DNA of 64,000 bases from Antedon mediterranea (Eukaryota > Animalia > Echinodermata): assembly GCF_964355755.1 (NCBI RefSeq), contig NC_092671.1, positions 22,828,070 through 22,892,069 on the forward strand, read 5' to 3'. This document shows, piece by piece, positions 7,650 to 44,429 of the stretch (its first letter is position 1; each line of letters starts with the position of its first letter). The notes below the pieces were generated by a model. The model saw only the letters and a program-made list of their open reading frames with translations. It had not been told where the DNA came from and searched no databases. The translations under genes were made by a program, and so were the position numbers.

Positions 7650-8526
7650 TAGTCAGGCAGCATTTGTCACTATATTAACTTTACTTCATATATTTAGCCA
7701 AGTTTGATTTTTCACTTTTAAATGATCAAGGACATCACAAGAAACAACTTCCAACTTGTTGTCCAAATTCTAAACGCGTTTTTCATTCGCTGGGGGCGCT
7801 TTTTCAAAATGGCCGCCTATGCTATCAAGTACTTATATCTCGGCAACCACTAATCGTAGAGACTTGGTTTTAGTCTTAAAATGTTCGTAAGGTACATAAT
7901 TCTATTCACTATAATGGAACATTTTGCCCTAAAATGACCGGAAATACTATTTCTGACCATTTAACCTTTGACCTGATCTTATCATATCTCAATAACTATT
8001 GGTCAGAAAGAGTTGATATTTATCCCAAATTTTTCAGAAAATACATGTTTTTATTTGCTTTAATGCAAAGGTTTGTTTCAAGATGGCCGGAAAAACCATA
8101 TCTGACCTTTGACCATAACCTGTGTGATATCCACAACATGTTGGTTATAGATAACATTTTTCGACAGATTGCTCAGAACATCCATATTTGTAACACATTA
8201 TTGATTTTTCAATTATTGATGCTTTAAAACATTCACTTAAGCTTGGAAATTAAAGTTTTAAAATAAATAAAAGCTACTCATTATCTCCATACATAATCCT
8301 AGCCTGTGATTGGCTGAAAGTTCAAGCAGATTAGATTTCATGAGTTTAAATGGTAAGTGTTTTTTAAACCGATTTAAACAGTGTTTGCTGGGAAATCATA
8401 CTTATTATTAGTACATATACATTTACTTGTATAATAATGTACCTATGCTGATATAAATGTTGTACAGAGAGGCCTTAGTTAAATAGTTATAAACTATAGT
8501 TCCAGTCTAGGCCTTGTCGCTAACAC

Positions 8527-10461
8527 CAGTGGTGGCGCCAGCGGGGGGGCTACGGGGGCTGTAGCCCCCTCGTCGGGGAGCCTAGCCCCCCACGTCGGGG
8601 AACGCGAGTACTTTTCGTCGGGGAATATAATATAAAGTAAAAATCATTCGCGTTCACTTCGTAGCTTCAGCGACTAGAAAACCACGAAGTTCCATTTTTG
8701 TTAAGTACGTCGGAGGGCTATTACACTTAATATTATGCATGCATTATTGCCAGCGATCTAATAAACAATAGGTATGCACTTGTCTGGCGGTGTCCCTTTG
8801 TACGAATCGTTTAACATTGGGCCCGGCCCATTGCGGTTTACGCGTGATATCATGTTCCACCCAGGGACCAGAATGTGTACTGTAGTTACTTTCCAGGCGA
8901 AGTTTACTGACGCGTTACGTCGTGTACTGTGTATCGACAGCAAAAGGGTACGAATTATCTTCGTGATCTACGGTATTTTATTGTTCGTATGTTCAATTTT
9001 TTTAATTTACGATTACCGTGGGGTACTGTAGGCTCGGCCTACATTACTAAACAAAAAACATGCCATTTTCGTTTAGCCAACATCTTATTACATTTCCAAT
9101 GTCCTGTATGTCATGAACTGCTCGTACATCGAAATTCGAGATTCACATTTGGGAAATAAACTGATTTCCCCGACGGAAAATGGTCTACGCTTGTGGATGC
9201 ATTCCCCTCCAAATAAAAGGTAAAAAGGGTAACTTGTTTAGGCCTCTATGTCTGAATTTTTTTAAAGTATAGGTGTAATTTTTGAAGACCTGCATCTCTA
9301 GTTTCCAAAATTGTCTTAGCTCAACCGTCCCCAATTATTGAGCTGGTCATGTATACTTACCGTACATTTTGTTTCATATTTCGATGTACAATATACAGTC
9401 AGTGCATTGAACCTAGAGCTCTATTTTTTCAATTTGTTTATATATCCATGGTAGGGCTGGTTCTGGAGACGTACCGGTATATATCTTGTTTATGCTTCGA
9501 AGTATAATAAGTAAAATTTCCGGGACCTAGCAACTCTATTTTTCAGAATGTTCTTAGCTCCACCCCAACCATGGTGGGCTGGACCTATAATTTCGTTTCA
9601 TATTTCAATGTTTTGCAGGGACCTAGCAGCTCTATTTTTGACAATTTTCTTAGCTCTGGTTCTGTAGACTTATAATTTCGTTTCATTTATCAATATGGGC
9701 CTATATAAGTGCAATTTCCAGGTACCTAGCAGGTCTATTTTTCACAATTTTCTTAGCAGCTCAACCATAATGGTAGGGCTGGTCCTGGAGCCTTATATAT
9801 TTTGTTTCTTTTTTTCGAAATACTATAATCCAATATCCGGGGACCAAACAACTCTAGTTGTTTAAATGTCCTTAGCTCCATCTCAACCTCGGTGGGCTTG
9901 TTCTCTGATAGACTTGTAATTTCGTTTTATATATCAATGTATAATTGCAATTTCCGGGGACCTAGCAGCTCTATTTTACAAAATTTTCTTACAGATCAGG
10001 CCATGGATATCTCGCGCATTTACAATTTTCGCACCCCCAGACAGCAACCTGCCTACGTCTCTGCGATTATAACGATATACCTCTTGGCCCGTGGGTAGGT
10101 TTTACGTTCACGTATATTTTCTATGATAGGCATATTGAACTTTAAAAACTTCATTTTTAAATTTGAAAGAATGGATTTACACAGTCATCGTACCGGACCT
10201 CTTGCAATGTGTTTTTCACACAGTATTTTATTTATGTACCATACAAAATTGAAAAAATTGGCTACCCTAAATCTGATTAAAACGGCCTCAAATTACGCTA
10301 TAACGTGTTGCTTCCGGGGGCTCCCCCTCCCCCCACCAGGGGCCCTTGGCGGCCCCCTGGCCCCCAGCCAAGTGATGCTCGCTTCACTCGCATAGCCCCC
10401 CTCCCCCACCCCCGTCGGAGAATTTAGCCCCCGCGTCGAAAAGATCCTGGCGCCACCCCTG
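8527..10461. mobile_element. Non-autonomous hAT-like element nested in Academ copy 1
   Basis: 15-bp TIRs CAG(T/G)GGTGGCGCCAG with 14/15 match. 8-bp TSD GCTAACAC at 8519-8526 and 10462-10469. Internal ~120-bp tandem repeats at ~9270-9990. Confidence 0.9.
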
Positions 10462-10548
10462 GCTAACACCTAGCAAACAATGCTAGCCTGGTGAGATCCC
10501 CGTAGAACTCAGTGACAAGCCAACTCAGTGCCTGGCATGGTAACCTCC

Positions 10549-12231
10549 GATGATGTCAGTCAAACGATTGAAAAGCGAGACCAATTAGGAAAAGAAGCAT
10601 TGGATAAAATTGTGACTTAACGAGTGGTTGAAAAAACCGTAAAATTTTGGGACCCTCAAAAGAAAAACAACTTCTCTTATTTCAAGGATGTAGGAGCAGT
10701 GGTGAAAACCAAAATTAAAGGTCAACTAATATAGTTTCAATTAAGCAAGAGAGAAAGATGCTGTCTAGATTGTTAGTTGTGGCAAAGAGCAGGCCAGAGT
10801 TCGCTCTAAAGGATGTCATAGGCAACTATGAGTTCAATAGCACTCCACCATCAAATTTCCATCCAGATGGAAGAATGGTATTGCAGTCAATAACAGAACT
10901 CCCTCTACCAGATAATGTCAGCAGGCCTGTACAGAAAGATGTTAAAAAGCAGCATCAATCCTAATTATTGATGGAATGTGTGTCGTCAATATGGTAAAGA
11001 AGGTGTCTGAAAAGTTCAATGCTTCTGACTTTGCATCTGAATTTGTTAACCTGATTGTTGGTATGAGCAAACCATATGATGAAGTTCGTCTTTTATTTGA
11101 TCAATATCTATCAGGATCTTTAAAAGAATCTACACGAGATAAAAGAAAACAGAAAACAACTACCATTCACTACCATGTCAATGACAACACTGAGATTAAG
11201 AACATTAAGACATTTTTATCGCACAAAGAGACCAAAGCTGAACTTACAAAATATCTGTCAGAGAAGATACCTAATCACTTCAAGAACAACACGAAGAAGG
11301 TCCTAGCAACACATCACACGTCCATGATGGCAAACTGCAATCTCTCAGAAGTTATCATGATGCCAGAGATGACACACGGACAAACACACATTGGAAGAAG
11401 GGGACCAACTGGTCTTATTGTATGCCTTTGATTGTATGAACAAAGACCCAGGTGCCAATGTTGACCTATTTTCTGTAGATACTGATGTCTTTATCCTTTT
11501 AACAGGAAGCTATCCTCTACTTCCTCCAATGACCACATTTTGTAGGAAAAGAGGGGAAAAAATACCTATATGGCAATGCTATTACCGACTTTGAAAACAA
11601 ATATCAGCAGCACTGATTGGATGGTACGCATTAGGTACAGATAACATAGGTACATTTGCTGGAAAAGGAGTGTCCACCCATTTCAAAGCACTTATGAAAT
11701 GTGACGATGAAATACTAGATGCATTTGCTGTATATGGACTGACCTCTGAAATACCAAATTGGATTTTCAGGCAAATGGAAAGATATGTTTGCATATTATA
11801 CAGTACTTCTAAGATCATGGCAGATTATGTCACAGACTTGAGATGGATGTTATTTGCACCGAAAGGCAAGGAAGGACAACAATTACCTCCAACCATGGGA
11901 ACTCTTAGACCACACGTGGAAAGAGCATACTACATGTCTATTGTATGTAATTCATCATGCAAGCCAACTCCATCTATTCCACCAGCAACTGACTACTCCC
12001 TGGCAACTAGAAGATGGTCACTTGAAGCCGGTATTTTTCAACAATCCACCAGCACCAGAAGCTCTTCTAGAAATTCGTCGATGTACCAGCAATGGTTCAT
12101 GTTCAACAAATCGCTGTAGTTGTAAGAAAAACAACTTGCTCTGTACTGATGCATGTGAGTGTGGTGATGGATGTGAGAATACAAAGGACTGGAATGTAGA
12201 GCTAGTAGACGATATCGATGAACTTTATTGA
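10549..12231 (+). pseudogene. C-terminal part of Academ protein (XPG/FEN1-like PIN nuclease plus Cys8/CXC finger), frameshifted
   Basis: Motifs across frames: LSRLLVVAKSRPE, IDGM, FDQY...SLK..TRDKR, EEGD, VDTDVFILL, GTD...FAGKG, LPPT...LRPHVERAYY, CTSNGSCSTNRCSCKKNNLLCTDACECGDGCEN. Several stops and frameshifts. Confidence 0.82.
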
Positions 12232-13752
12232 CTGGAGAGGGTAATCTGACTATATTCAATATTTATGGTATGTATTTATTTATTATAACAGTTCCATTGG
12301 TGATTTGAAATATTGATTTTGGAACAAGGGATATCATCAACAAAACCACAAGTACTGGTACAAGTTATAAACAATACCAGACAAATCTATAGACTCTCAG
12401 TTGTGGATATTACATGCATTAGGGCAAGAGGTCAGATATGGCATTTCTGTTTGCTTTAAAACAAAACATTTAATTACAGTAAATATAAAAAGGCATACTG
12501 TGAACAATTTGAAACAAATTTCAAGTCTGTGTGACCATTAGTTACCGAGATATGATGATAGAAGGTCAAAGGTCAAACGGTCAGAAATGGCATTTTCAGT
12601 CATTTCTGGTCAAAATATTCCATTAGAGTAAATAGAAATATGTACCTTACAAACATTTTAAGATTAAAACCAAGTCTCTACGATTAGTGGTTGCCGAGAT
12701 ACAAGTACTTGATAGCATAAGTGGCCATTTTGAAAAAGCGCCCCCAGCGAATGAAAAACGCGTTTAGAATTTGGACAACAAGTTGGAAGTTGTTCGTTGT
12801 GATGTCCTTGATCACTTAAAAGTGAAAAATCAAACTTGGCTAAATATATGAAGTAAAATACAAATGCTGCCTGACTAGTCAGGCAGCATTTGTCACTATA
12901 TTAACTTTACTTCATATATTTAGCCAAGTTTGATTTTTCACTTTTAAATGATCAAGGACATCACAAGAAACAACTTCCAACTTGTTGTCCAAATTCTAAA
13001 CGCGTTTTTCATTCGCTGGGGGCGCTTTTTCAAAATGGCCGCCTATGCTATCAAGTACTTATATCTCGGCAACCACTAATCGTAGAGACTTGGTTTTAGT
13101 CTTAAAATGTTCGTAAGGTACATAATTCTATTCACTATAATGGAACATTTTGCCCTAAAATGACCGGAAATACTATTTCTGACCATTTAACCTTTGACCT
13201 GATCTTATCATATCTCAATAACTATTGGTCAGAAAGAGTTGATATTTATCCCAAATTTTTCAGAAAATACATGTTTTTATTTGCTTTAATGCAAAGGTTT
13301 GTTTCAAGATGGCCGGAAAAACCATATCTGACCTTTGACCATAACCTGTGTGATATCCACAACATGTTGGTTATAGATAACATTTTTCGACAGATTGCTC
13401 AGAACATCCATATTTGTAACACATTATTGATTTTTCAATTATTGATGCTTTAAAACATTCACTTAAGCTTGGAAATTAAAGTTTTAAAATAAATAAAAGC
13501 TACTCATTATCTCCATACATAATCCTAGCCTGTGATTGGCTGAAAGTTCAAGCAGATTAGATTTCATGAGTTTAAATGGTAAGTGTTTTTTAAACCGATT
13601 TAAACAGTGTTTGCTGGGAAATCATACTTATTATTAGTACATATACATTTACTTGTATAATAATGTACCTATGCTGATATAAATGTTGTACAGAGAGGCC
13701 TTAGTTAAATAGTTATAAACTATAGTTCCAGTCTAGGCCTTGTCGCTAACAC

Positions 13753-15687
13753 CAGTGGTGGCGCCAGCGGGGGGGCTACGGGGGCTGTAGCCCCCTCGTC
13801 GGGGAGCCTAGCCCCCCACGTCGGGGAACGCGAGTACTTTTCGTCGGGGAATATAATATAAAGTAAAAATCATTCGCGTTCACTTCGTAGCTTCAGCGAC
13901 TAGAAAACCACGAAGTTCCATTTTTGTTAAGTACGTCGGAGGGCTATTACACTTAATATTATGCATGCATTATTGCCAGCGATCTAATAAACAATAGGTA
14001 TGCACTTGTCTGGCGGTGTCCCTTTGTACGAATCGTTTAACATTGGGCCCGGCCCATTGCGGTTTACGCGTGATATCATGTTCCACCCAGGGACCAGAAT
14101 GTGTACTGTAGTTACTTTCCAGGCGAAGTTTACTGACGCGTTACGTCGTGTACTGTGTATCGACAGCAAAAGGGTACGAATTATCTTCGTGATCTACGGT
14201 ATTTTATTGTTCGTATGTTCAATTTTTTTAATTTACGATTACCGTGGGGTACTGTAGGCTCGGCCTACATTACTAAACAAAAAACATGCCATTTTCGTTT
14301 AGCCAACATCTTATTACATTTCCAATGTCCTGTATGTCATGAACTGCTCGTACATCGAAATTCGAGATTCACATTTGGGAAATAAACTGATTTCCCCGAC
14401 GGAAAATGGTCTACGCTTGTGGATGCATTCCCCTCCAAATAAAAGGTAAAAAGGGTAACTTGTTTAGGCCTCTATGTCTGAATTTTTTTAAAGTATAGGT
14501 GTAATTTTTGAAGACCTGCATCTCTAGTTTCCAAAATTGTCTTAGCTCAACCGTCCCCAATTATTGAGCTGGTCATGTATACTTACCGTACATTTTGTTT
14601 CATATTTCGATGTACAATATACAGTCAGTGCATTGAACCTAGAGCTCTATTTTTTCAATTTGTTTATATATCCATGGTAGGGCTGGTTCTGGAGACGTAC
14701 CGGTATATATCTTGTTTATGCTTCGAAGTATAATAAGTAAAATTTCCGGGACCTAGCAACTCTATTTTTCAGAATGTTCTTAGCTCCACCCCAACCATGG
14801 TGGGCTGGACCTATAATTTCGTTTCATATTTCAATGTTTTGCAGGGACCTAGCAGCTCTATTTTTGACAATTTTCTTAGCTCTGGTTCTGTAGACTTATA
14901 ATTTCGTTTCATTTATCAATATGGGCCTATATAAGTGCAATTTCCAGGTACCTAGCAGGTCTATTTTTCACAATTTTCTTAGCAGCTCAACCATAATGGT
15001 AGGGCTGGTCCTGGAGCCTTATATATTTTGTTTCTTTTTTTCGAAATACTATAATCCAATATCCGGGGACCAAACAACTCTAGTTGTTTAAATGTCCTTA
15101 GCTCCATCTCAACCTCGGTGGGCTTGTTCTCTGATAGACTTGTAATTTCGTTTTATATATCAATGTATAATTGCAATTTCCGGGGACCTAGCAGCTCTAT
15201 TTTACAAAATTTTCTTACAGATCAGGCCATGGATATCTCGCGCATTTACAATTTTCGCACCCCCAGACAGCAACCTGCCTACGTCTCTGCGATTATAACG
15301 ATATACCTCTTGGCCCGTGGGTAGGTTTTACGTTCACGTATATTTTCTATGATAGGCATATTGAACTTTAAAAACTTCATTTTTAAATTTGAAAGAATGG
15401 ATTTACACAGTCATCGTACCGGACCTCTTGCAATGTGTTTTTCACACAGTATTTTATTTATGTACCATACAAAATTGAAAAAATTGGCTACCCTAAATCT
15501 GATTAAAACGGCCTCAAATTACGCTATAACGTGTTGCTTCCGGGGGCTCCCCCTCCCCCCACCAGGGGCCCTTGGCGGCCCCCTGGCCCCCAGCCAAGTG
15601 ATGCTCGCTTCACTCGCATAGCCCCCCTCCCCCACCCCCGTCGGAGAATTTAGCCCCCGCGTCGAAAAGATCCTGGCGCCACCCCTG
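13753..15687. mobile_element. Non-autonomous hAT-like element nested in Academ copy 2
   Basis: Duplicate of 8527-10461 with the same GCTAACAC TSD. Confidence 0.9.
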
Positions 15688-15774
15688 GCTAACACCTAGC
15701 AAACAATGCTAGCCTGGTGAGATCCCCGTAGAACTCAGTGACAAGCCAACTCAGTGCCTGGCATGGTAACCTCC

Positions 15775-17457
15775 GATGATGTCAGTCAAACGATTGAAAA
15801 GCGAGACCAATTAGGAAAAGAAGCATTGGATAAAATTGTGACTTAACGAGTGGTTGAAAAAACCGTAAAATTTTGGGACCCTCAAAAGAAAAACAACTTC
15901 TCTTATTTCAAGGATGTAGGAGCAGTGGTGAAAACCAAAATTAAAGGTCAACTAATATAGTTTCAATTAAGCAAGAGAGAAAGATGCTGTCTAGATTGTT
16001 AGTTGTGGCAAAGAGCAGGCCAGAGTTCGCTCTAAAGGATGTCATAGGCAACTATGAGTTCAATAGCACTCCACCATCAAATTTCCATCCAGATGGAAGA
16101 ATGGTATTGCAGTCAATAACAGAACTCCCTCTACCAGATAATGTCAGCAGGCCTGTACAGAAAGATGATAAAAAGCAGCATCAATCCTAATTATTGATGG
16201 AATGTGTGTCGTCAATATGGTAAAGAAGGTGTCTGAAAAGTTCAATGCTTCTGACTTTGCATCTGAATTTGTTAACCTGATTGTTGGTATGAGCAAACCA
16301 TATGATGAAGTTCGTCTTTTATTTGATCAATATCTATCAGGATCTTTAAAAGAATCTACACGAGATAAAAGAAAACAGAAAACAACTACCATTCACTACC
16401 ATGTCAATGACAACACTGAGATTAAGAACATTAAGACATTTTTATCGCACAAAGAGACCAAAGCTGAACTTACAAAATATCTGTCAGAGAAGATACCTAA
16501 TCACTTCAAGAACAACACGAAGAAGGTCCTAGCAACACATCACACGTCCATGATGGCAAACTGCAATCTCTCAGAAGTTATCATGATGCCAGAGATGACA
16601 CACGGACAAACACACATTGGAAGAAGGGGACCAACTGGTCTTATTGTATGCCTTTGATTGTATGAACAAAGACCCAGGTGCCAATGTTGACCTATTTTCT
16701 GTAGATACTGATGTCTTTATCCTTTTAACAGGAAGCTATCCTCTACTTCCTCCAATGACCACATTTTGTAGGAAAAGAGGGGAAAAAATACCTATATGGC
16801 AATGCTATTACCGACTTTGAAAACAAATATCAGCAGCACTGATTGGATGGTACGCATTAGGTACAGATAACATAGGTACATTTGCTGGAAAAGGAGTGTC
16901 CACCCATTTCAAAGCACTTATGAAATGTGACGATGAAATACTAGATGCATTTGCTGTATATGGACTGACCTCTGAAATACCAAATTGGATTTTCAGGCAA
17001 ATGGAAAGATATGTTTGCATATTATACAGTACTTCTAAGATCATGGCAGATTATGTCACAGACTTGAGATGGATGTTATTTGCACCGAAAGGCAAGGAAG
17101 GACAACAATTACCTCCAACCATGGGAACTCTTAGACCACACGTGGAAAGAGCATACTACATGTCTATTGTATGTAATTCATCATGCAAGCCAACTCCATC
17201 TATTCCACCAGCAACTGACTACTCCCTGGCAACTAGAAGATGGTCACTTGAAGCCGGTATTTTTCAACAATCCACCAGCACCAGAAGCTCTTCTAGAAAT
17301 TCGTCGATGTACCAGCAATGGTTCATGTTCAACAAATCGCTGTAGTTGTAAGAAAAACAACTTGCTCTGTACTGATGCATGTGAGTGTGGTGATGGATGT
17401 GAGAATACAAAGGACTGGAATGTAGAGCTAGTAGACGATATCGATGAACTTTATTGA
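15775..17457 (+). pseudogene. Academ XPG-like/Cys8 pseudogene, copy 2
   Basis: Same disrupted frames as 10549-12231. Confidence 0.82.
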
Positions 17458-18140
17458 CTGGAGAGGGTAATCTGACTATATTCAATATTTATGGTATGTA
17501 TTTATTTATTATAACAGTTCCATTGGTGATTTGAAATATTGATTTTGGAACAAGGGATATCATCAACAAAACCACAAGTACTGGTACAAGTTATAAACAA
17601 TACCAGACAAATCTATAGACTCTCAGTTGTGGATATTACATGCATTAGGGCAAGAGGTCAGATATGGCATTTCTGTTTGCTTTAAAACAAAACATTTAAT
17701 TACAGTAAATATAAAAAGGCATACTGTGAACAATTTGAAACAAATTTCAAGTCTGTGTGACCATTAGTTACCGAGATATGATGATAGAAGGTCAAAGGTC
17801 AAACGGTCAGAAATGGCATTTTCAGTCATTTCTGGTCAAAATATTCCATTAGAGTAAATAGAAATATGTACCTTACAAACATTTTAAGATTAAAACCAAG
17901 TCTCTACGATTAGTGGTTGCCGAGATACAAGTACTTGATAGCATAAGTGGCCATTTTGAAAAAGCGCCCCCAGCGAATGAAAAACGCGTTTAGAATTTGG
18001 ACAACAAGTTGGAAGTTGTTCGTTGTGATGTCCTTGATCACTTAAAAGTGAAAAATCAAACTTGGCTAAATATATGAAGTAAAATACAAATGCTGCCTGA
18101 CTAATACGCAAGCCACAAAAATGACAGAAAGAAAGAAGAA

Positions 18141-18336: not shown

Positions 18337-18486
18337 TTGGAAGAATTTTATCTGGTTGTGGAATAGGTATTACATAAAATTTCTTTTTGAACAACCAAAA
18401 ATAGTATAAGCAAACTTACAGTACGTTTCGAAACCTATCAGGTTTCATTCTCAACTGGCGTTTCATCGTCTAGCGTTGTTAATCCC

Positions 18487-19728
18487 ATGACGACGATGAG
18501 TTGGTATAGCGCCACCAACAGGTCCAAAAGGACTGAAAATGTACCACGCCTCTATTGCTTACCCAAAGTACACAAACCAAATTGGCCCATCCGACCAATT
18601 GTTGACAGTATTAACACCATTTTCTACGGAGTGTCACGCTACATTAAGGAAATCCTCAAACCCCTAGTAGGCAACTCAAAACATCATGTTGAGAACTCCA
18701 AACAGCTAGCGAAGGAAATTAGGAACATAAACATCCCTCCTAATGAAACACTAATATCATTTGATGTTGTTTCTTTGTACACAAAAACACCAGTAAAAGA
18801 AGCAGTAAAAACCGTAGAACATTGCCTAAAACAGGACAAGCAACTTAACACAAGACCAAAATTAGAAGTGGTTGACATCATTGAGCTATCACTGATTCTC
18901 AACGCCACTTATTTCAGTTTCAAAGGCAAAATATACAAACAAAAGGAAGGTTTAGCGATGGGCAGTCCCATCAGCCCCATCATAGCAAATTTGTTTATGG
19001 AATGGTTAGAGTCGGAGGCGATTGCTACAGCACCAATGGAATTCAAACCCTCCATACGGTATCGCTATGTCGATGACATTCTTGCCAGCATTCCCTTGCA
19101 TGCAGCTACTGATCTAAACACTCACTTAAACAACATTGACACTACCCAAAACATTAAATTCACCACCGAATGCATGTCTAACAACACCATTCCTTTTTTG
19201 GACATTCTTATAACACTACAAAGCAACCGATCATTAACAACTTCAGTCTACAGAAAACCGACACACACAGATCAGTATTTAAATTTCAAGTCAAATCACC
19301 CATTACAACACAAACTCAGTGTTATTAATACGCTTGTGGACAGATGTGAAAACATAGTTTCAACACCTGAAGGACAGAAACAGGAAATGGACCACATCAG
19401 ACCGGCTTTGAAGAAATGCGACTACCCAGATTGGACATTCAAGAAGGTAGAAAAACAACGACTCCAAAAACAGCAACGACAGCTTGATCAAAATCGCAGC
19501 AAAGGTACAACATCTACTAAAGAAAAGTCACGTTGTAATATCGGGATCCCATACACAAAAGGTCTGTCTGAACGCATAAAAAGAGTATTCAACCAACATC
19601 AAATTGACACCTTTTTCATCCCATCTAATAAGATCAGGCAAAACCTCGTTCATCCGAAAGACCGCATCGAAAAAGATCAAGTATGCGGTTGCATCTACAA
19701 ACTACAATGTTTGAACTGTCCACAGTAG
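18487..19728 (+). CDS. Penelope-type reverse transcriptase with start of GIY-YIG domain (truncated)
   Basis: LYCLPKVHK..PIRPIV, SFDVVSLYT, GLAMGSPISP, RYVDD, PFLD, VYRKPTHTDQYL, GIPY, GCIYKLQCLNC. The stop codon is the TAG terminus of the inserted Academ. Confidence 0.9.
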   Translation: MTTMSWYSATNRSKRTENVPRLYCLPKVHKPNWPIRPIVDSINTIFYGVSRYIKEILKPLVGNSKHHVENSKQLAKEIRNINIPPNETLISFDVVSLYTKTPVKEAVKTVEHCLKQDKQLNTRPKLEVVDIIELSLILNATYFSFKGKIYKQKEGLAMGSPISPIIANLFMEWLESEAIATAPMEFKPSIRYRYVDDILASIPLHAATDLNTHLNNIDTTQNIKFTTECMSNNTIPFLDILITLQSNRSLTTSVYRKPTHTDQYLNFKSNHPLQHKLSVINTLVDRCENIVSTPEGQKQEMDHIRPALKKCDYPDWTFKKVEKQRLQKQQRQLDQNRSKGTTSTKEKSRCNIGIPYTKGLSERIKRVFNQHQIDTFFIPSNKIRQNLVHPKDRIEKDQVCGCIYKLQCLNCPQ

Positions 19729-20684
19729 TAGGCCTGTTAAGTGACCCAATCCTTCAAATTGTGATAACATTCTGAAACTTTGCACAGTTATTCATTAGGG
19801 TGTCAAAAATATGAAATGGAAGGGTTGCACAAAATTTGGTCAGGGGAAAGCCGCCATTTTGGATTTCAAAATGGCGGACCCAAATTTTTCACTTTTCAGG
19901 TATATCTCTGCTAAATAGGCACCTAGAGTTCTGAATTTAGGTGCAAATTATATGGTAATGGGGTCACCCAACATATTGGTATAACTAACATTTTAATTGC
20001 ATGGCGGCCATTTTGGATTTCAAAATGGCGGACTTCAAATTTTTCACTTTTCAGGTATATCTCTGCTAAATAGGCACCTAGAGTTCTGAATTTAGGTGCA
20101 AATTATATGGTAATGGGGTCACCCAACATATTGGAATAACTAACATTTTAATTCCATGGCGGCCATGTTGGATTTCAAAATGGCGGATTTCAAATTTCCT
20201 TTTTTCAGGTATATCTCTGCTAAAAAGGCACCTAGAGTTCTGATTTTAGGTGCAAATTATATGTTAATGGGGTCACCAAACATATTGGTATAACTAACAT
20301 TTTGATTGCACGGCGGCCATTTTGGATTTCAAAATGGCGGACTTCAAATTTTCACTTTTCAGGTATCTCTGCTAAAAAGGTACAGAGTTCTGATTTTAGG
20401 TGCCAATTATATGGTAATGGGTAACCAAACATATTGGTATTTAACTGACATTTTTATTGCATGGCGGTCATTTTGAATTTCAAAATGGCGAACTCAAAAT
20501 GTTTCAGTGCGGTACCTACAGTTATAATTTTAGGTAGGCCTACAAAGTATAATATAATATTGAGGTCAACAAACATATTAGTATAACGTCATTGATTGCA
20601 TGGCGGCCATTTTTAATGTAGCTCAACCCGTACTGGCTTTACACTATTTGTTTATGTTCATAATTACATGCATTTAACACGGAC

Positions 20685-21733
20685 ACTTATTGTAGGTCAC
20701 ATTTTCCCTGGCAACCACACAGCTCTGTACATCGTAAATCACTCTTTCTGCATTTACAGCATCCAAGATCACAGTCGGTGTGTCCAAAGCGAATTAAAAC
20801 CTTTGTGACATCTGAAAGTTCTCCAAGCAATGAACTCCAAGCTGGACTAAATTTGTTGCCTTCCTTCCTCTATCCCCAGTTCGCTGGGTCCTGTCCAACC
20901 CTGAATGCATCTAGACAGTCGTACCACTTCCTGGCTTCCGTTTCACATGTTCTCTTAATGCCGCAGATGTTGGGGGATATTTTCAATAGTCTTTCTCTTG
21001 TTGTAAAAAGATATCGTATTGCATCATTAAATGTTCTGCAGTAGACATACTTACAACAAACTGTTCTAGATAATCTGTGTCTGTTTCACTAACAAGCCCT
21101 ACAGACAATGACATCCTCTCAAAAACTGGAGTAATACATGGCATCTTTTTCGAAGTCTCGTTAAATGTAGCTTTACCTTTTCCTTAAACAGATGAAGTTC
21201 TATCACAACCGCTAATGGTATGAAAGAACAAGTAAGCGGCTGATGCTTGTGATCCAAGAAAAGAAGCAATCTCGTGTATTGGGATGTACTTCAAGTGCTT
21301 CCCCACTCCAAACTCGATCAGAAGCTTGTGAATGCCAGGTATTCTGTGGAAAGCTGACAACAACATCACTGTGTACAGTCTTGACAATGCGTGGAAAATT
21401 TCAGCGGCAAGTTTAACGTGAACAAACATACGTTCACCTGCCTCTTCTATGTTACATGGCATAGGCGATTGTATATTTACTGGTTTGTTACAGCTCTGTC
21501 TCCCAAAGACCCTACAAACATTCCGTGATTTGTGCCAATGTTCTCTACTACTTCAGTTACAATAAATGAAAACAACTCTGATTTGTTGTCATCAAATCTA
21601 AAAAATGTGGTCCAATTGTTGGGCATGCTCCCGCTGGCTTTAACGACCCTCTTTACACCAGAAACGCGGTTTGAACGCGTACCAGACTTTAAACTGTCAT
21701 TTATCTATCGAAAAACAAATCTAGTCGTGTCAC
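20685..21733 (-). pseudogene. Academ XPG-like/Cys8 C-terminal remnant, left arm
   Basis: LKSGTR, NWTTF...NKSELF, CNIEEAGERMFVHV, FGVGKHLKYIPIHEI, FHTISGCD, then a terminal Cys cluster. Disrupted. Confidence 0.8.
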
Positions 21734-21744
21734 TGATCGAAGTT

Positions 21745-22614
21745 GACACAAATCACGGAATGTTTGTAGGATCTCTAGGAGACAGAGCTGCAACAAACCA
21801 GTCTGTAAATATACAACTGCTGATGCCATGTAACATAGAGGCAGATGAATGTATGTTTGTTCATGTTAAACATGCCGCTGAAATTTTTCCGCGCATTCTT
21901 GTCAAGACTGTAGACAGTGATGTTATTGTTATTGCATTGTCAGCTTTCCACAGAATACCTAGGATCCACGAGCTTTGGATCGAGTTTGGAGTGGGGAAGC
22001 ACATCCCAATACACGAGATTGTTTCTTCTCTTGGACCACAAGCATCAGCCGCTTACTTGTTCTTTCATTCCTTTAGCGGTTGTGATACAACTTCATCCTT
22101 TCAAGGAAAAGGTAAAGCTACATTTAACCCGACTTGGAAAAAGATGCCATGAATGACTTCAGTTTTCGATAGGATGTCATTGTCTGTAAGGTAAAGTGTC
22201 GAGACCTAAGCTAATGATAATGGCCGTGGTGCCATCTCCATTTCTTTAGCGTTTGAGCCAGACTCCACTAAGTGTGTATGTTTGTGGGGGTACGCCACTC
22301 CTCCTGCACAAACGAGTCTGATTTACGTTCCCAGTACCTTTTTCTATCATCCGGGTGAGGAGGAACAATGTGGATAAAGAATCTTGCTTAAGGACTCAAC
22401 ACTGCAGTGACCGACCGGGCTTGAACCAGCAACCTCTTGATTGCAAGTCCAATGCTCTAACCACTGCGCCACAGTGCTCCACATCTCAGATGTCACAAAG
22501 GTTTTAATTCGCTGTGGACACACCGACTGTGATCTTGGACGCTGTAAATGCAGAAAGAGTGATTTACGATATACAGAGCTGTGTGGTTGCCAGGGAAAAT
22601 GTGACCTACAATAA
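21745..22614 (+). pseudogene. Academ XPG-like/Cys8 C-terminal remnant, right arm, disrupted by a SINE
   Basis: CNIEADECMFVHVKHA, VKTVDSDV, HSFSGCDTTSSFQGKGK. Inverted copy of 20685-21535. Confidence 0.8.
22188..22482 (-). mobile_element. tRNA-derived SINE (possible CORE-like domain)
   Basis: Minus strand has A box TGGCGCAGTGGTTAG, B box GGTTCAAGCCC, then gagtccttaagcaag and a ctttacctta tail. Confidence 0.8.
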
Positions 22615-23436
22615 GTGTCCATGTTAAATGCATGTAACTATAAACATAAACAAATAGTGTAAAGCCAGTACAGTTTGAGCTACGTTCAAAATGGCCGGCG
22701 GCGGCAATGCAATCAAAGAAGTTACCCATTACCATATCATTTGCACCTAAAATCAGAACTCTAGGTGCCTCTTTAGCAGAGATATACCTGAAAAGTGAAA
22801 ATTTGAAGTCCGCCATTTTAAAATCCAACATGGCCGCCATGCAATCAAAATGTTAGTTATACCAATATGTTTGGTGACCCCACTACCATTATAATTTGCA
22901 CCTAAAATCAGAACTCTAGGTGCCTTTTTAGCAGAGATATACCTGAAAAGTGAAAATTTGGGGTCCGCCATTTTGAAATCAAACATGGCCGCCATGCAAT
23001 CAAAATGTTAGTTATACCAATATGTTTGGTGACCCCACTACCATATAATTTGCACCTAAAATCAGAACTCTAGGTGCCTTTTTAGCAGAGATATACCTGA
23101 AAAGTGAAAATTTGGGGTCCGCCATTTTGAAATCAAACATGGCCGCCATGCAATCAAAATGTTAGTTATACCAATATGTTTGGTGACCCCACTACCATAT
23201 AATTTGCACCTAAAATCAGAACTCTAGGTGCCTTTTTAGCAGAGATATACCTGAAAAGTGAAAATTTGGGGTCCGCCATTTTGAAATCCAAAATGGCGGC
23301 TTTCCCCTGACCAAATTTTGTGCAACCCTTCCATTTCATGTTTTTGACACCCTAATGAATAACTGTGCAAAGTTTCAAAATATTATCACAATTTGAAGGA
23401 TTTGCCTAAAATATGCATCTTAACATGCCTACTACA

Positions 23437-34196: not shown

Positions 34197-34447
34197 TTTT
34201 TTTTTTTTTATTCATACTCATCCAACAGCGAGTAACTCGCCAATTACAGGATGGATAAACTATTTAATAATTTATCGTGCTTATAAACTAAGTCTCATTT
34301 GAGGCTTAGGGAGTGGAGTTGAAAGAGTCATGAGTTACAACCCTGCACTAGGTCAGGATTGAACCCGGGACCTTGGGATTGGAAGGCAAGCACGTTAACC
34401 ACCAAGCTACAGCTCCACTCCTTTAACCACCAAGCTACAGCTCCACT
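34197..34447 (-). mobile_element. tRNA-derived SINE (duplicated copy)
   Basis: Identical to 32220-32470, inside the tandem duplication. Confidence 0.85.
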
Positions 34448-37400
34448 CCTATTGTTATTGTATGAAATCTTTATTTGGTTATCCGCAACGAAGTTGCAGG
34501 ATAACCTCTTGTGATTGTACGAAATCATCAACATCAACTTTTTATTAGTTATCCGCACTCAGCGGATAACTCCTTGTAACTGTCCTGTTTCATCATCTTT
34601 TTTTTTTTTTTTCTGTATTATTCTTTCTTTCTGTCATTTTTGTGCAGAGCATATCTCAAAAACGTGTAAAGTTAACATTTCATAACTTTGTCAACATATG
34701 GGTATTCACCTGAAGTTGTGCTTTGCTATTTTTGAATGACGTCAGAATTGCACAACATGAATTACGCGCGTTTTAACGAATTTCGCGTATTTAACATACA
34801 TCGAAAACCATATAACAATTTAAATTGAAACTTAACAAAAGTTTTAGTTATATCTTGCGCTAACTGACTTTGTAAAAAAAATGGCATGTTTTACACGAAG
34901 TTACGCGCGCACGCGCGTTTAAAATTTCAAAACGCGAAAAATCAATTTTTAATCCACTTTCTACGCGTTTCATGTCATTTTGAGCAGGTAAAAAATTCCC
35001 ACGCGTGCGCATTTTTTTACGCGCGCCGTGCGCACGTAGCGTTGAAAACAATTTTTTTCACGTGATTTATGTTTTTCCAGCCTTTTGTAGTAATTTTACC
35101 AACTTTTAAACGATTTAGACTTAAAATTACGTCATACGGGCACGTCGAATTGGATAATTTACGTGGGTTTTTGATGAAAAAGGTAAAAAATTCGTAAAAA
35201 TTTGTCAAAATTATGCCTTTTTTTAAACAGTCGTAATTTCTAAACTAGACGGTCAACTTTTTGTGGATGACATATTCTTGAAGTTGATGAGGTGTAGATA
35301 TCGGATCATGTAATAATATGGCTAACCGGACATTGTGACGTCATCGTATGGCCACGCGAATATAAAATATAGGATTTTTGTATCTTTCATCATAGCGCAT
35401 GACATTTAATAGAGCGCATCTCCAATTATCTGTTTTCTATTTTTACCCCGATTTTTATATTATCTAGGTCAATCAACTATCTTTCGTATGAGTTAAAAAT
35501 ATCTTAATTTTTATGACGTCATCATGTCTAAAAATGTAAATAACGTGGGTAACTTATTTTCGTCTTTACAGTAAATTTCAATCTGTTATAGCTCGTCAGA
35601 ATAAAACGTGATAATCATGATTAAAACGTTTTCTGGAAGCTATTGGATTGTAGATACGAATTTATGTAAACATTTTGCCAATCGGATGTTGTGACGTCAT
35701 CATATGACCAGTTAAATAAAAAAAGTCGTATTTTCATCTTTTGCGTCATAATTCATCACATTTAAATGAGCGCGCATCAATATTTTACATATTTAAATTT
35801 CTTCTACACATTAATATGTTGTTGCCGAGATAATTTCCTTCCGAAATTGCTATCTTAGTGTTTCATTTTGATACCGTCGCTATGTTAAAAATTTTGGAAT
35901 AAATGGCGGGTCCAGTCATTTCACCTATTCTACACAGTATGTAATATGTATACAGATTATATTGTATATATGATATGACACAAAATAACAGAATTCAGCA
36001 ATAACAACATATCATATTCTTCAGTTCAGGTCATATTGCCACAATCTTTTTCTGTGTGCAATATTCTAACGTATGACGTCTACGTGGCCTTTGTCGTGCG
36101 GATAACTAACTCGTCAAAGTGACGAGTTACATGTCTAGTTAGTTATCCGCATTCAGCGGATAACTCCTTGTAACTGTCCTGTGTCTTTTTTTTTTTTTTC
36201 ATTATTCTTCAGTCTTTCTCCCTCACTTTTTGTGCAGAGCGTATCTCTAAAATGGGTAAACATAACATTTCATAACTTTGTCAACATATGGAAATTTACG
36301 TGAAGTTGTGCACCTCCTATTTTTGAATGACGTCAGTGTTGCGCAACATGACTTACGCGCGTTTTTATGAATTTACAGATAATAACATAGATCGAAAACC
36401 ATATAACAATTTAAATTGAAACTTTGCAAAATTTTAATTTATATCAGGCGCTAACTTTCTGTTGAAAAAAAGTTGCGTGTTTTACACAAAGTTACGCGCG
36501 CACGCGCATTTAAAATTTCAAAATGCGCAAAATTAATTTCTAATCAACTTTCTACGCGTTTCATGTCATTTTAAGCATGTAAAAAATTCCCACGCATGCG
36601 CAAATTTGTACGTGTGCGGTGCGCACGTAGCATTAAAAACATATATTTTTCGCGTGATTTATGTTTTTCCAGCCTTTTCTAGTAATTTTACCAACTTTTA
36701 AACAATTTCGACTTAAAGTTACGTCATACGAGCATGTCGAATTGGACAATTTGCGCACGTTTTTGATGAAAAAGTACAAAAATTTGTCAAAATTATGCCT
36801 TTTTTTAAACAATCGTAATTTCTAAACTACACGGTCAACTTTTTGTGGATGACATATTCTGGAAGTTGATGAGTTGTAGATATCAGATCATGTATTAATA
36901 TGGCTAACCGGACATTGTGACGTCATTGTTTCTGTACACTATTTTGTGTAACAATTATCTCAAAAAGTTTAATGTCAATGATTACCAAAATTTCAGAGTA
37001 TCTTTCAAATAATATAACTTAATCCTAATAAGCTTTTCAGCGTGATCACTCATCCGTGACGTCACGTATACGCCATTTTGTGAAATCACATTATCAATCA
37101 TATCTCCATAATTCATTATCACATATTAATGAAAATCACTAGACATAAACTTAAGGGCAAGGTAAAAAATATTAGCAAATAAAAACTCGGGCGTTTCAAG
37201 GTCATGCTCGTGAAATCGCGCGTTGAAATTTTAAAAAGCTCAAAATTTAGTTTTTATCATTTTAGAGCATGAAATAGGCCATTTGCGTGTTTAAAAAAAT
37301 TACTGCGCAAAAACACATTTTTGCGCACGCGATTTTTAAAAAGGGTAAAAAATAAAATTTGATGTATACATCATATTCTACTCACAATCCTTAGTACATT

Positions 37401-40400
37401 CTCCGACTTTGAGTCCATTCCGACTTAAAATAACGCTATACGAGCACGTTAAAAATGACAAAATGCGCACATTAATTGTACAAAAGTGCTAAAAATGGTA
37501 AAAAAATAAGGCCTTTTTAAAATGAATATTACTCTTCAGAATGGCAGGTGACCCCCAATTTTTTTAACTTATTATGGAAGCCAATAAGTTGTAGATATAA
37601 ATATATATACATATTAGACGTACAAAATGGTATGACGTCATCAAATGGCCACTTGAATTTAAAAATTAGTAATTATTATCTTTTTGTGTGGGTTATCACA
37701 TTCAATAGAGCGCATCTCCGTTATTTTAGCCCAATTTTTGCACACATTTTAGTACAGTATGTGCTTGCTCAATTAATTATCTTTCTCATAAGTTGTCAAC
37801 ATTTTTATTTTGATGACGTCATCATGCGTAAAAACTTGAATAACCTAGGTCGTGTAATTTCAGCTACACCATACATTTGAATATCTTATAGCTCCTCAGA
37901 ATTAAAGGTGACCTTGAAGATTATAATTTATTATGAAAGCTGATGAAATGTAGATATGAATTCATATAAAAATTAAGCCTATCGGATGTTGTGATGTTAT
38001 CATATGGCCAGTTGAAGTTAAAAAGTAGTTTTTAAATTTCTTTAGTCGAAGTTATACAAATTTCAAAGACCGCGCATTGCGCTTCTACGTGTCAAATTCT
38101 CTTCCAATCCTTATATTTATTTGCTCAATTCATTATCTTTCGAAATTGTCATCTTCGAGTTTATTTTGATAATTACATCATACCAAAAAAGTTGAACTTG
38201 ATGTGTGTCCCATAATTTCACCTATGCTACACTGTATATAGATATACAGTATATACTGTACATTGTATATGGCATATAATAGGCATAACTCAGCAATATA
38301 AGCGTATAATAGGATGGCATACATCAACATTTTCCTATCGTATGTTAACGTACGTACATGTTTAACAAAAATTAATTTCATTAAAATGATAAAAATGATC
38401 ACCTATAATTCGTCAAAGTGACGAATTAAATTCTAGTCTTTTTATTGTTTCTGTACACTATTTTGTGTAACAATTATCTCAAAAAGTTTAATGTCAATGA
38501 TTACCAAAATTTCAGAGTATCTTTCAAATAATATAACTTAATCCTAATTAGGTTTCCAGCGTGATCACTCATCCGTGACGTCATTTATACGCCATTTTGT
38601 GAAATCACATTATCAATCATATCTCCATAATTCATTATGACATATTAATGAAATTCACTACAGGTAAACTTCAGGTGAGGGTAAAAATATTAGCAAATAA
38701 AAAGTTGCGCCTTTCAAGGTCATGCACGTGAAATCGCGCCTTAAAAATTTAAAACGCGCAAAATTAGGTTTTGATCAATTTAGAGCATGAATTAGGCCAT
38801 TTGCGCGTTTCAAAAAATTAGTGCGCAAAAATGCGTTTTTGTGCGCACGATTCTTAAAATGCGTAAAAAATAAAATTTGATGTATAAATCACATTCTACT
38901 CACAATCCTTAGTACATTCACCAATTTTGAGTCCATTCCGACTTAAAATAACGCTATACGAGCACGTTAAAAATGACAAAATGCGCACACTAATTGTACA
39001 AAAGTGCTAAAAATGGGAAAAAATAAGGACTTTTTAAAATGAATATAACTCTTCAGAATGGCAGGTGACCCCCAATTTTTTTAACTTATTATGGAAGCCA
39101 ATAAGTTGTAGATACAAATGTATATACATATTAGACGTACAAAATGGTATGACGTCATCAAATGGCCACTTGAATTTAAAAATTAGGAATTTTTATCTTT
39201 TTGTGTGGGTTATAACATTCAATAGAGCGCATCTCCGTTATTTGAGCCCGATTTTCGCACAACTTTTAGTATGTACTTGCTCAATTAATTATTCTTCTAA
39301 TGAGTTGTCAACATTTTTATTTTGATGACGTCATCACGCGTAAATAACCTAGGTCGTGTAATTTCAGCTACACAATACATTTGAATATCTTATAGCTCTT
39401 CTGAATTAAAGGTGACCTTGAAGATTATAACTTATTATGAAAGCTGATGAAATGTAGATATGAATTCATATTAAAATTAAGCCTATCGGATGTTGTGATG
39501 TTATCATATGGCCAGTTGAAGTTAAAAAGTAGTTTTTAAATTTCTTTAGTCAAAGTTATACAAATTTCAAAGACTGCGCATTGCTCTTCTACGTGTCAAA
39601 TTTTCTTCCAATCCTTATATTTATTTGCTCAATTCATTATCTTTCGAAATTGTCATCTTCGAGTTTATTTTGAAAATTCCATCATACCAAAAAATTAGAA
39701 CACGATATGAGTCCCGTAATTTCACCTATGCTACACTGTATATAGATATACAGTATATACTGTACATATTGTATGACACATAATAGGTAGAACTCAGCAC
39801 TATAAGTGTATATGGATCATGTCATAGGATGGCGTACATCAACTTTTAAAGATTGTATGTTAACGTACATGCATGTTTAAAAAATGTTAATTTTATTAAA
39901 ATGATAAAAATGATCATTAAAGTGACGAATTAAATTCTAGTTTGTTTTTGATGTCATCATACCCAAAAATTACAACATGCTTAACTGTATATAAATATAC
40001 AGTATAAACAGTACTGTATATATTCTATATGACAGATGATTAAGCCTATAGACATATGTGACAAGTTTAAATTCTAGTTTTTCGTTATTGGCAGAATCCA
40101 TTAATACAAATTGGGAAAAACTTGGAATTTTCAAATGCAGCTTGAACTGCAAAATTAAATACATTAAATTAAATCGAAAAAAAAATATAGGGAACGTGTA
40201 TTTACTAATAGGATAGGAATAATAAATGTTGTTTTATAAATTATATAATATATATTTTTTTAAGTGCCAATTATGAGTTTGTTTTCATAGGCCTATAAGA
40301 AATAAACCTAATCAAAAATCACCACAACTGATTTATTTACATCAAATACAAAAAGAATGACCAAAACCTAACTATTGCAATGTGGAATTTGTAGGGTCAT

Positions 40401-40824
40401 TTCACCCTAAGGTCCCCAATTACTTTTGGACGATCCCCGTCTCAAAAAAAAAATCTTACCGTTCGTTAGGTTACTAGTTGCTGTTTCTTTAGATAAGTAA
40501 CTTGGACTCTTTGTCAGAGACAATCTTGTGTGTGTTGATTTTTTGGCAGTTTTTAGTTTACCTAAAAAAAAAGATTTTCTGTTTAAGTGTATTGTAAGCC
40601 ACAGGTGACAAGCAGTTCAGAAACAATGTGTTACTAAGGAAAAACTGCAACAAATATATTGTTATTGATTTGATATCCAATTTCAGAAATCCTGAAACTC
40701 CTCAGTTACAATTTTGTGTGAATAGTATCTCTGTGATTATTTTATTTGTTATTTATTATGAATTTGATCCAAGTCAACCCTAAAACGTCTCGGCCAAAGT
40801 AAAGTCGGCCCCACGTCAATGAAT

Positions 40825-43800
40825 GAAAATGAAAAAGTTCGTCAAAATTATTTTAAAAAATGTTTAAACAGTCATAGATTCTAAACTACGAGGTGAACTT
40901 TTTTTAAATTACACATTCTAGAAGTTGATGAGTTGTAGATATCGGATCATGCATTAATATGGCTAACCGGACATTGTGACGTCATCGTATGGCCACGCGA
41001 ATATAAAATATAGAATTTTTGTATCTTTTGTCATAGCTCATCACATTCAATAAGGCGCATCACGCTTATCCGTATTCCATTTTCTCCAAGATTTTAATAT
41101 TGTCTCGGTCAATCCACTATCTTTTGCACGAGTTAAAATATTTAAATTTTTGATGACGTAAATTAAATTACGTGGGTCATTAATTTCATCTTTACAGTAA
41201 ATTTAATCTGTTATAGTTCGTAAGAATAAAAAGAGATAATCACAATTAAAACGTTTTCTGGAAGTTATTGGATTGTAGATTCGAAATCATGCAAACATTT
41301 TGCCAATCGGGTGTTGTGACGTAATCATATGGCCAGTTGAATAAAAAAAGTTGCATTTTCATCCTTTGCGTCATAGTTTATTACATTTAAAATAGGCTAG
41401 TCAATCTAGCATTTTGAGTGAAACAAATTGCAAACAGAGATTTTTTTTTTTTAAATGGTTACATATGATAAGGTGATTATTTTTTGAGCATCACACCTCT
41501 GACACTCATCCCGAAGGTATGCAAATTAGCTTAAATATGCAAATTAGGGTGAAATTACAGGGTTACCATATCTTAAAAACTACTAATCGTAGAGAGTTCA
41601 TTTTTGCACAGTCTGGTTCAGAATATATATATTTATATTTGCTCTAATGAGACATTTTACCTAAAAATGTCCGGAAGTACCAAATTTTGACCCTTGACCC
41701 CATTTCTCAATATTTACATAAATATGTGATTAAAATGTCTGTAGAGACTTTATTTTGGACTCAATGACTTGGATATTGTTTTTCAATACCCACCATAGAA
41801 CTGTATTATAATTCCTAAAATCACAACTTCGTCACGCACCTCGAAAGTATGCAAATTAGTAGTACAAGTAATATTAAATATGCAAATTAGGGAGTGAAAT
41901 TACAGCGTTGCCATATCTCGAAAACCGCTAATGCTAGAGTGTTGATTTTTTCACTAAAATATTTAAAATGTATATATTTATATTTGCTGTAATGAGACAT
42001 TTTACAAAAAAATTCCCGGAACTATGACATTTGACCCTCGACCCCATTTCTCAATATTGCATATATAATGAAAACTAAAATGTCTGTAGAGACTTTATTT
42101 TGCCCTCAAATGACTCGGATACAGGTTTCTAATAGCCAACATAGGAATGTTTAGTAAATCTCAAAATCACACCTGTATCACTCACCTTCAAAGTATGAAA
42201 ATTATTAGTACAAGTTACATGAAATATGCAAATTAGGGGATGAAATTACAGGTTCCTATATGTATCGAAAACCGCTAAGGTAGAGAGTTGATTTTTTCAA
42301 AAACTTGTTCAGAATGTACATATTTATATTTGCTCTAATGAAACATTTTACGAAAAAATGACCGGAAATACAACAATTGACCCTTGACCCTATTTATCAA
42401 TGTTTGCATACATAATGCGACTAAAATGTCTGTAGATAATTTTTTTGGACTCAAATGACTCGGATACAGTTTTCCTATTGTCAGCATAGGACCTCTTTGT
42501 AATTCCCAAAATCACATCTTTGTCACATACCTTGAAAGTATGCAAATTATTAGTACAAGTTACATGAAATATGCAAATTAGGGGTGAAATTACAGTCTTC
42601 CCATATCTCGAAAACCATTAATGCTAGAGAGTTGATTTGAATTCAGAGTTGATTCAGAATGTACATATTTATATTCGCTGTAATGAAACATTTTATGCAA
42701 AAATTGTCTTGATTGAATTATGACATTTGACCCTTGACCCTATTTCTCAATATTTTCATATAATTCAACTAAAATATCTGTACAGACTGTTTTGGCCTCA
42801 AATGACTCAGATACAGGTTTTCTATAGCCAGCATAGAACTGTAGTAATTCTCAAAATCACACCTTTGTTACTTCCCTAGAAAATATGCAAATTAGTAGTA
42901 CAAGAGGTGAAAGTTGCCATATCTCTATCGGTCATTAGCGTTTTTCGAGATACATAAGGCTGTAATTTGCATATTTCATATAACTTGTACTAATAATTTG
43001 CATACTTTCGAGTTGCTTGACTTTTGGAATTACTAAACGATCCTATACTGGCTATATAAAACCTGTATCCAAGTCATTTGAGACCAAAACAAAGTATGTA
43101 CATACATTTTAGTTGCATTATATGCAAATATTGAGAAATAATAATAATAATATCCTGGATTTATATAGCGCCTAATGTTGTGTAACCTCTAAGCGCTGTA
43201 CATAAACTAATACGAAAAAAGGGAATTCCAACCATGCCAAAACGAAGGCGTGATTTTGGGAATTACAAAGCGGTCCTATGCTGACTATAGCAAACATATA
43301 TCCGAGTTATTTGAGTCCAAAACAAAGTCTCTACAGACATTTTAGTCGCATTATGTATGCAAACATTAATAAATGGGGTCGAGGGTCAATTGTTGTATTT
43401 CCGGTCATTTTTTCGTAAAATGTTTCATTAGAGTAAATATAAATATGTACATTCTGAACAAGTTATTGAAAAAAATCAACTCTCTAGCCTTAGTGGTTTT
43501 CGATATATAGGAACCTTTAATTTCACCTTCTAATTTGCATATTTCATGTAACTTGTACTAATTTGTATACTTTGGAGGTGAGTGATACAGGTGTGATTTT
43601 GAGATCTACTAAACAGTCCTATGTTGGCTATTAGAAACCTGTATCGGAGTCATTTGACGGCAAAACAAAGTCTCTACAGACATTTTAGTTTCATTTATAT
43701 ATGCAATATTGAGAAATGGGGTCGAGGGTCAAATGTCATACTTCCGGTCAATTTTTTGTAAAATGTTTCATTGGAGCAAATAGAAATATGTACATTTTGA

Positions 43801-44429
43801 ATACGGCTGTGAAAAAATCAGCTCTCTAGCATTAGTGGTTTTCGAGATATAGGACAACTGTAATTTTTTCCCCTTATTTGCTTATTTTATTTAAATTGTA
43901 CTACTAATTTGCATACTTTCGAGGTGTGTGACAAAGGTGTGATTTTGGGAATTACAAAGTGATCCTATGCTGGCTATTAGGAACCTATGTCTGGGTCATT
44001 TGAGGGCAAAATAAAGTCTCTACAGACATTTTAGTCACATTGTATATGCAAACATTGAGAAATGGGGTCGAAGGTCAAATGTTGTACTTCCGGTCATTTT
44101 TTCGTAAAATGTTTTATTAGAGTAAATATAAATATATACATTTTGAATAGATCAGTGAAAAAATCAACTCTCTCGGACTAGTAGTTTTTGAGATATGGTA
44201 ACCTTGTAATTTCACCCTAATTTGCATATTTAAGCTAATTTGCATATCATCGGGATGAGTGACAGAGGTGTGATGCTCAAATTTTGATCTCCTCATCATA
44301 TATGACCATTTAAAAAAGAAAAATCTCTGTTTGCAATTTGTTTCACTTTGGGCTGTTTTTTTTGCTAGATTGACTAGCCTAAAAGAGCACGCATCAATAT
44401 TTCAAATATTTAAATTTCCTACACGTTAA
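40825..44429 (+). mobile_element. HINE-like body fragment hosting an Academ fold-back insertion
   Basis: 40825-41392 and 44382-44429 align contiguously to the family A body (acatttaaaa|gagc). Confidence 0.75.
41393..44381. mobile_element. Non-autonomous fold-back Academ-like element
   Basis: Termini TAGGCTAGTCAATCTAGCA...TGCTAGATTGACTAGCCTA. 3-bp TSD AAA. Both arms are built of ~350-bp tandem repeats in opposite orientation, with the switch near 42925. No coding sequence. Confidence 0.85.

Follow-up and report, generated by a model that had tools for sequence, protein, structure and literature searches.

Transposable elements of the AcademX lineage have two kinds of ends, short and long, and this asymmetry is real and widespread in the lineage. 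In each element, a terminal box lies about one helical turn farther from an inner box at one end than at the other. Based on the distribution of the ends, a predicted protein model and analogy with better known transposases, the transposase probably needs a pair of unlike ends, one short and one long, to be efficient.

The window analysed here, a stretch of 64,000 nt from Antedon mediterranea, harbors three such elements, named E1, E2 and E3 (Table 1). All have TAG…CTA tips and a 3-bp target duplication (ATA in E1, CAG in E2, AAA in E3). When TAG…CTA pairs were scanned across the whole window, only these three had such a duplication. The initial annotation had noted a 10-bp difference between the left and right spacers, which proved exact in E1 (12 vs 2 bp), E2 (6 vs 16 bp) and E3 (5 vs 15 bp). 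Global alignment of the ends gave offsets of +10, −10 and −10, respectively; the boundary between box and spacer is uncertain by a few bases, which leaves the 10-bp offset unaffected. In a Helitron-like repeat, paralogous sites that lack the insertion had a single ATA (E1) or AAA (E3), and an ORF for reverse transcriptase is split by E2. E1 consists of two tandem units (7650–18103), which share a “TA” at 12876–12877, and the ATA duplication surrounds the dimer as a whole, not the single units. Other E1 copies, from public sequencing runs, had the same short (X1) and long (X2) ends with different flanks.

Table 1 Academ features in the window (positions from its first nucleotide).
Feature	Position	Strand	Description
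E1 unit A	7650..12877	+	Element of Academ-1/AcademX type, defective; arms of the TIR ~490 bp; left end long and right end short
E1 unit B	12876..18103	+	In tandem with unit A, from which it differs at 1 of 5228 nt; its long tip is fused to the short tip of unit A
E1 target duplication ATA	7647..7649	+	Partner at 18104–18106; flanks the dimer; empty paralogous sites
E1 long end	7650..7679	+	18-bp tip box, 12-bp spacer; identity again from 7680
E1 short end	12858..12877	-	18-bp tip box, 2-bp spacer; identity again from 12857
E1 broken coding remnant	10540..12180	+	C-terminal nuclease-like region and Cys-rich tail of Academ protein
E2	19726..23434	.	Defective Academ; CAG at 19723–19725 and 23435–23437; 154-bp repeats in both arms
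E2 short end	19726..19747	+	16-bp box, 6-bp spacer; identity again from 19748
E2 long end	23403..23434	-	16-bp box, 16-bp spacer; identity again from 23402
E2 minus-strand remnant	20699..21710	-	3' part of gene, Cys-rich tail at its end
E2 plus-strand second copy of 3' part of gene	21743..22602	+	Internally deleted; 85–95% identical to minus-strand copy
E3	41393..44381	.	Gene-less, near-palindromic; AAA at 41390–41392 and 44382–44384; arms ~1.1 kb, 345-bp repeats
E3 short end	41393..41416	+	19-bp box, 5-bp spacer; identity again from 41417
E3 long end	44348..44381	-	19-bp box, 15-bp spacer; identity again from 44347

The AcademX lineage, class DNA/Academ-1 in Dfam, was reportedly described by Kapitonov and Jurka in 2010 and by Kojima in 2020. 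The window elements resemble AcademX/Academ-1 in their TAG tips, 3-bp duplication and single large protein, whose DDE-type core is accompanied by a C-terminal region resembling nucleases and by a Cys-rich tail; the window copies are defective. Remnants of the Academ-type DDE transposase gene were found in E1 and E2, and match proteins of ~1,500 amino acids encoded in TAG-ended elements with 3-bp duplications. E3 had no coding remnant and was placed by its ends only. AcademX is defined by a 3–4-bp target duplication plus a nuclease (PMC10045372), and E1–E3 have the 3-bp duplication and TAG…CTA termini expected for this lineage. They differ from AcademH, which has 9–10-bp duplications and a helicase gene: their duplications are of 3 bp, and no helicase family turned up in the 31 window ORFs and 12 full-length relatives scanned. 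Pfam gave no name to any Academ remnant in the window. DUF6589 was weakly matched in six of the 12 full-length relatives, one of them reaching the curated cut-off. The nuclease-like C-terminal region carried the invariant acidic motifs EAD, DxD and GCD. Its weak matches to YacP (E 0.013), exonuclease 1 (E 0.83) and Pox_G5 (score 0.77) hint at a putative XPG/FEN1-like nuclease domain.

A curated bivalve library (supplement 31 of PMC10294476) holds 100 Academ-1 entries, for 42 of which the first bases of one end were inspected by eye: 39 start with TAG and 21 have a scorable inner word. The E3-type word TTGCAA was found at nt 35–37 (n = 5) and nt 46–47 (n = 6) of these entries, and at nt 36 and 46 in E3 itself. 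This recurrence at E3’s own distances ties the gene-less E3 to Academ-1. The word of the main clade was found at nt 21–22 (n = 3) and nt 32 (n = 4). Three near-copy entries had the E1-type word at nt 50, the position that it has in the long end of E1. Inner words of all three window types, E1, E2 and E3, were thereby seen in curated entries at matching distances from the tip.

Relatives were collected by protein alignment from the best 80 of 522 metagenome loci, 62 loci from genome bins, which appear to include eukaryotic host DNA, and 32 further stretches. Their tips were searched with any offset from −40 to +40 permitted, 0 included, and the calls were then inspected. Both tips were recognisable in 36 elements, most of the remaining loci being truncated. 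The offset was 8–11 bp in 36/36, exactly 10 bp in 22 and symmetric in none, with 13 of the 36 coming from one assembly and two (L001 and L100) being weak calls. Given as 5' minus 3' end, the offsets were +10 (16 elements), +11 (8), +9 (2), +8 (2), −10 (6), −9 (1) and −8 (1). A 3-bp duplication was present in 20 of these relatives and absent in 16, many of the latter probably being collapsed contigs. Together with the three window elements, they make 39 elements in 33–37 end families. The asymmetry was found in both deep clades, whose proteins are ~22–28% identical.

Single ends gave the same picture. With the inner box allowed anywhere at nt 15–72, the positions in 62 ends were bimodal, at nt 21–24 (31 ends) and nt 31–33 (30 ends), with one end at nt 28. 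Ends from untrained loci, three of them near-copies of training ends, fell inside the two peaks in 23 of 24 cases. A scan starting from the inner box recognized 35 short, 27 long and four other ends. The 10–11-bp peak that the initial annotation had predicted across Academ families was thus recovered both in the paired tips of the relatives and in their single ends.

Several candidates were dropped ahead of the count of 36. L038 had an offset of 0 at an internal TAG, its true tips being off the contig; L059 (offset 21) had lost its left tip, and L089 (offset −36) was truncated at its left end. The pairs in L173, L175 and L182 were microsatellite. Symmetric TAG-starting pairs without a 3-bp duplication were removed in L194 (8112–9389), L200 (5598–10640) and L201, as were other internal arm points. 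The locus L002 had two short right ends (10251 and 10809), 558 bp apart, with a target duplication at the outer one only. Several prokaryotic bins (L081–L142) contained many Academ transposases, one of them dozens with long intact ORFs; these genes are most likely eukaryotic host DNA that was misbinned. Among 133 pattern matches in the viral collection, there were no Academ relatives.

As a control, the same procedure was applied in one run to Academ-tip pairs and to 38 inverted-repeat pairs of other kinds: none of the 38 had an offset of 8–12 bp, compared with 7/7 Academ-tip pairs, and most of the 38 were internal arm points, making this a control of the method and no survey of other superfamilies. 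The control speaks against a neutral relic or chance, be it coincidental indels in three copies or one ancient indel inherited passively, which the relatedness of all the elements would allow for. Moreover, the spacer sequence was randomised and both lengths were kept within ~1 bp across proteins of 22–28% identity. We therefore regard a neutral relic or chance as extremely improbable.

The tip box spans about nt 1–15 (TAGT, with G at positions 8 and 11). The inner box starts at about nt 22 on the short end and nt 32 on the long end; identity between the arms is regained at about nt 23 and nt 33, respectively. Identity in the tip and inner boxes was 0.85 and 0.88 within elements vs 0.49 and 0.47 between elements. 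The spacers were near background, with 0.61 within vs 0.55 between elements, and 0.33–0.35 between families. The spacer thus keeps its length while its sequence is free, as in recombination signals. The inner box was wholly different between clades, yet matching within each element. An origin of the long spacer by tandem duplication of neighbouring sequence was considered and rejected (best 10-mer self-identity 0.4–0.8).

The long spacer had also been expected to lie always at the 5' end of the gene. This expectation failed, with 28 long-5' against eight long-3' elements among the 36. E2 had been read in the same way, and its polarity is unassignable because the 3' end of the gene sits in both arms. 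A tree of 49 proteins, built by a quick method with E2 set to long-5' by assumption and L200 excluded, had eight polarity changes, at least seven of them forced by well-supported branches. Polarity was unclustered on this tree, all 500 shuffles being equally low. Either end type may occupy the 5' side of the gene. We infer that the flips arise by crossover in the long arms, by which the interior would be inverted and the pair kept. Because such a crossover keeps the pair, the flips show that orientation is irrelevant, and not that pairing is obligatory. They would need no selection, which counts against our explanation.

Both the two sharp end classes and the free polarity could also be accounted for by phase only. 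Inner boxes at nt 22 and nt 32 would both be in phase, any combination of ends would be active, and like-ended elements would be rare as the spacer heterology resists conversion. Indeed, a 10-bp heterology could by itself block conversion between the arms, which weakens the case for a pairing preference. Nevertheless, no like-ended element was found among the 36 relatives and the three window elements, including E2 and E3, which have fold-back or conversion-like arms. In these two, the arms were extended or homogenised over ~1 kb, and one end of each kind was retained. Furthermore, the scan of 62 single ends showed no third in-phase class near nt 42 in the main clade. For these reasons we consider phase alone unlikely. 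Two degraded elements left outside the 36 fall off the band, which counts against our explanation: L068 (offset about 5–6, one tip mutated) and L016 (offset about 12, degenerate tip).

An AlphaFold2 model of residues 1–1008 of the L024 protein had a pLDDT of 86 and a pTM of 0.70. With both the catalytic and the N-terminal model, no Foldseek match reached E ≤ 0.001. When its top ~1000 (997) chains were realigned, a ranking which differs from Foldseek significance, the best fold match to the L024 core was the Drosophila P transposase (6p5a/6pe2; Z 11.3, rmsd 4.9, 349 residues aligned; Z 11 for the Academ core), followed by Hermes (Z 7.3) and RAG1 (Z 7.0). The N-terminal model had confident modules, an overall pTM of 0.41 and a disordered linker at residues 123–142. 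Two conserved Cys/His clusters were recognized in this region, and a winged helix, a common fold, was predicted at residues 221–310 (Z 6–6.6). Structure searches with the N-terminal region found winged helices and hardly covered the Cys/His modules. In PDB, the HMMER matches were all weak, to lin-54 and to nucleases, the C-terminus being weakly similar to the DNA-binding CXC domain of lin-54 (E 0.004–0.012). The predicted Academ protein has a catalytic core like that of the P element and RAG1, to which Cys/His modules and a winged helix are tethered N-terminally on flexible linkers. Fold likeness to P or RAG1 by itself shows no function.

In the arrangement that we favor, the core would engage both tip boxes. 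The tethered DNA-binding unit would tilt toward the short end and so hold the inner boxes of both ends on one face of the helix; the nonamer-binding dimer of RAG tilts in this way, and the same has been proposed for the THAP/zipper unit of P. Two like ends would then be at a disadvantage against the pair that belongs to a single element. Alternatively, a host factor or a different domain of the element's protein, such as the C-terminal Cys-rich CXC, may recognize the inner box, and the asymmetry may order the cleavage or tune a promoter instead of enforcing pairing via an N-terminal DNA-binding dimer. The lin-54 likeness is in line with this, as are YY1-like words in both arms of E2. They lie at fixed distances within the 154-bp repeats, 143, 297, 452 and 606 nt from the short tip and 153, 307, 461 and 616 nt from the long tip. 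Against it, the inner box is clade-specific yet matched within each element, which fits a reader encoded by the element, and a promoter role is disfavored because it predicts the fixed polarity refuted above. Altogether, a different reader appears quite improbable, even less expected than phase alone.

The initial annotation had compared the Academ ends with the 12/23 rule of RAG. The existence of two end classes one turn apart bore out this comparison; the closest analogue by predicted fold is the P element, which that annotation had left unmentioned, with RAG1 after it. According to PMC7776569, P ends have 9- and 21-bp spacers, called reminiscent of 12/23, and flexible THAP/zipper domains are proposed to accommodate the unequal spacers. 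Academ shares with P the terminal repeat, followed by a spacer that is about one turn longer at one end, a putative internal transposase site and, by prediction, a flexible N-terminal DNA-binding unit. Academ departs from the P superfamily in its 3-bp rather than 8-bp duplication and in its ~15-bp tip box instead of a 31-bp TIR. The P transposase carries a THAP domain and requires GTP. In Academ, the offset is 10 bp, the arms are long, and the protein has a predicted winged helix and an added nuclease-like domain. The same source draws P-like elements of zebrafish with different spacings.

In RAG, a nonamer-binding dimer enforces the 12/23 rule, and the ends of PflRAGL-A differ by 10 bp (10.1101/2023.08.20.553239). 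Academ shares with RAG, RAGL and Transib a bipartite end, a one-turn difference, a spacer conserved in length without sequence and the likeness to the RAG1 core. In contrast to RAG/Transib, it has no CAC heptamer or nonamer and a 3-bp instead of a 5-bp duplication, and no RAG2-like gene was seen. Among Transib and RAGL elements, asymmetric ends occur alongside symmetric ones (PMC8355894 and PMC7204232). The asymmetry is patchy there; here, it was found in every scorable Academ. A pairing rule is proven for RAG only. The Academ ends are built like those of P and RAG/Transib, yet Academ belongs in neither family. One could speculate, and we hold this to be rather doubtful, that the one-turn asymmetry is ancestral to P, Academ and Transib/RAG, that AcademX would be a strict, lineage-wide and orientation-free 12/23-type system, and that the geometry underlying V(D)J pairing would be far older than RAG.

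No account of short and long ends for Academ was found in the literature searched, including the accessible parts of PMC10294476, PMC4455052, PMC5751038 and PMC10045372; the main Academ papers and Repbase Reports lay outside this scope and may mention bipartite ends. The known transposon precedents of the 12/23 rule are patchy: P, a few Transib and one RAGL-A family. With its many intact ORFs, AcademX makes it testable whether spacer asymmetry steers end pairing outside RAG, and whether it had one origin or several. In repeat curation, the short/long signature is diagnostic for Academ ends, and vectors derived from Academ should retain both end types.

At the E1 joint (12876–12877), a short and a long tip are fused directly, overlapping by the 2 nt TA, so that no spacer separates them and the joint resembles a signal joint or circle junction. 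It is the only such joint across the window and the relatives’ loci. Such a joint would be expected if 3' overhangs with CTA at their ends annealed and the resulting circle then recombined with a resident copy. The dimer could also be an assembly artefact, and its joint was not bridged by any of the 18 contig pieces, out of 67, among the matches listed.

In E2, the inverted repeat was extended into the gene (20604–22697), with identities of 95% in the outer and 85% in the inner part. The doubled 3' coding ends suggest template switching or a fusion of two 3' halves. The 154-bp repeats of E2 lie at 19853–20506 and 22725–23297, and the 345-bp repeats of E3 at 41533–42904 and 43245–44231, in both arms. 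The latter had no match to RFX and YY1 patterns. E2 interrupts a reverse-transcriptase element at 18368–23921, with 166-bp inverted repeats (99% identity), presumably Penelope-like from its architecture.

E1 and E3 are hosted by a tandem array of non-coding units of 1.5–2 kb (6397–7649 and 25015–41392). This family (25–41 kb) was considered as a source of extra Academ ends and rejected, as it terminates in a hairpin plus CTAG. We take such an end to be Helitron-like, and the units are then likely non-autonomous Helitrons. Two diverged copies of a segment at 5712–6299, 68–69% similar to the E1 arms, are possibly an old Academ arm without tips. Just past E3, at ~44570–47890, lies a further element, whose long inverted repeats are symmetric (offset 0). 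A Pao/BEL-type retroelement fragment (Peptidase_A17 and reverse transcriptase) was found at 62957–63793, and more reverse-transcriptase fragments at 48–57 kb.
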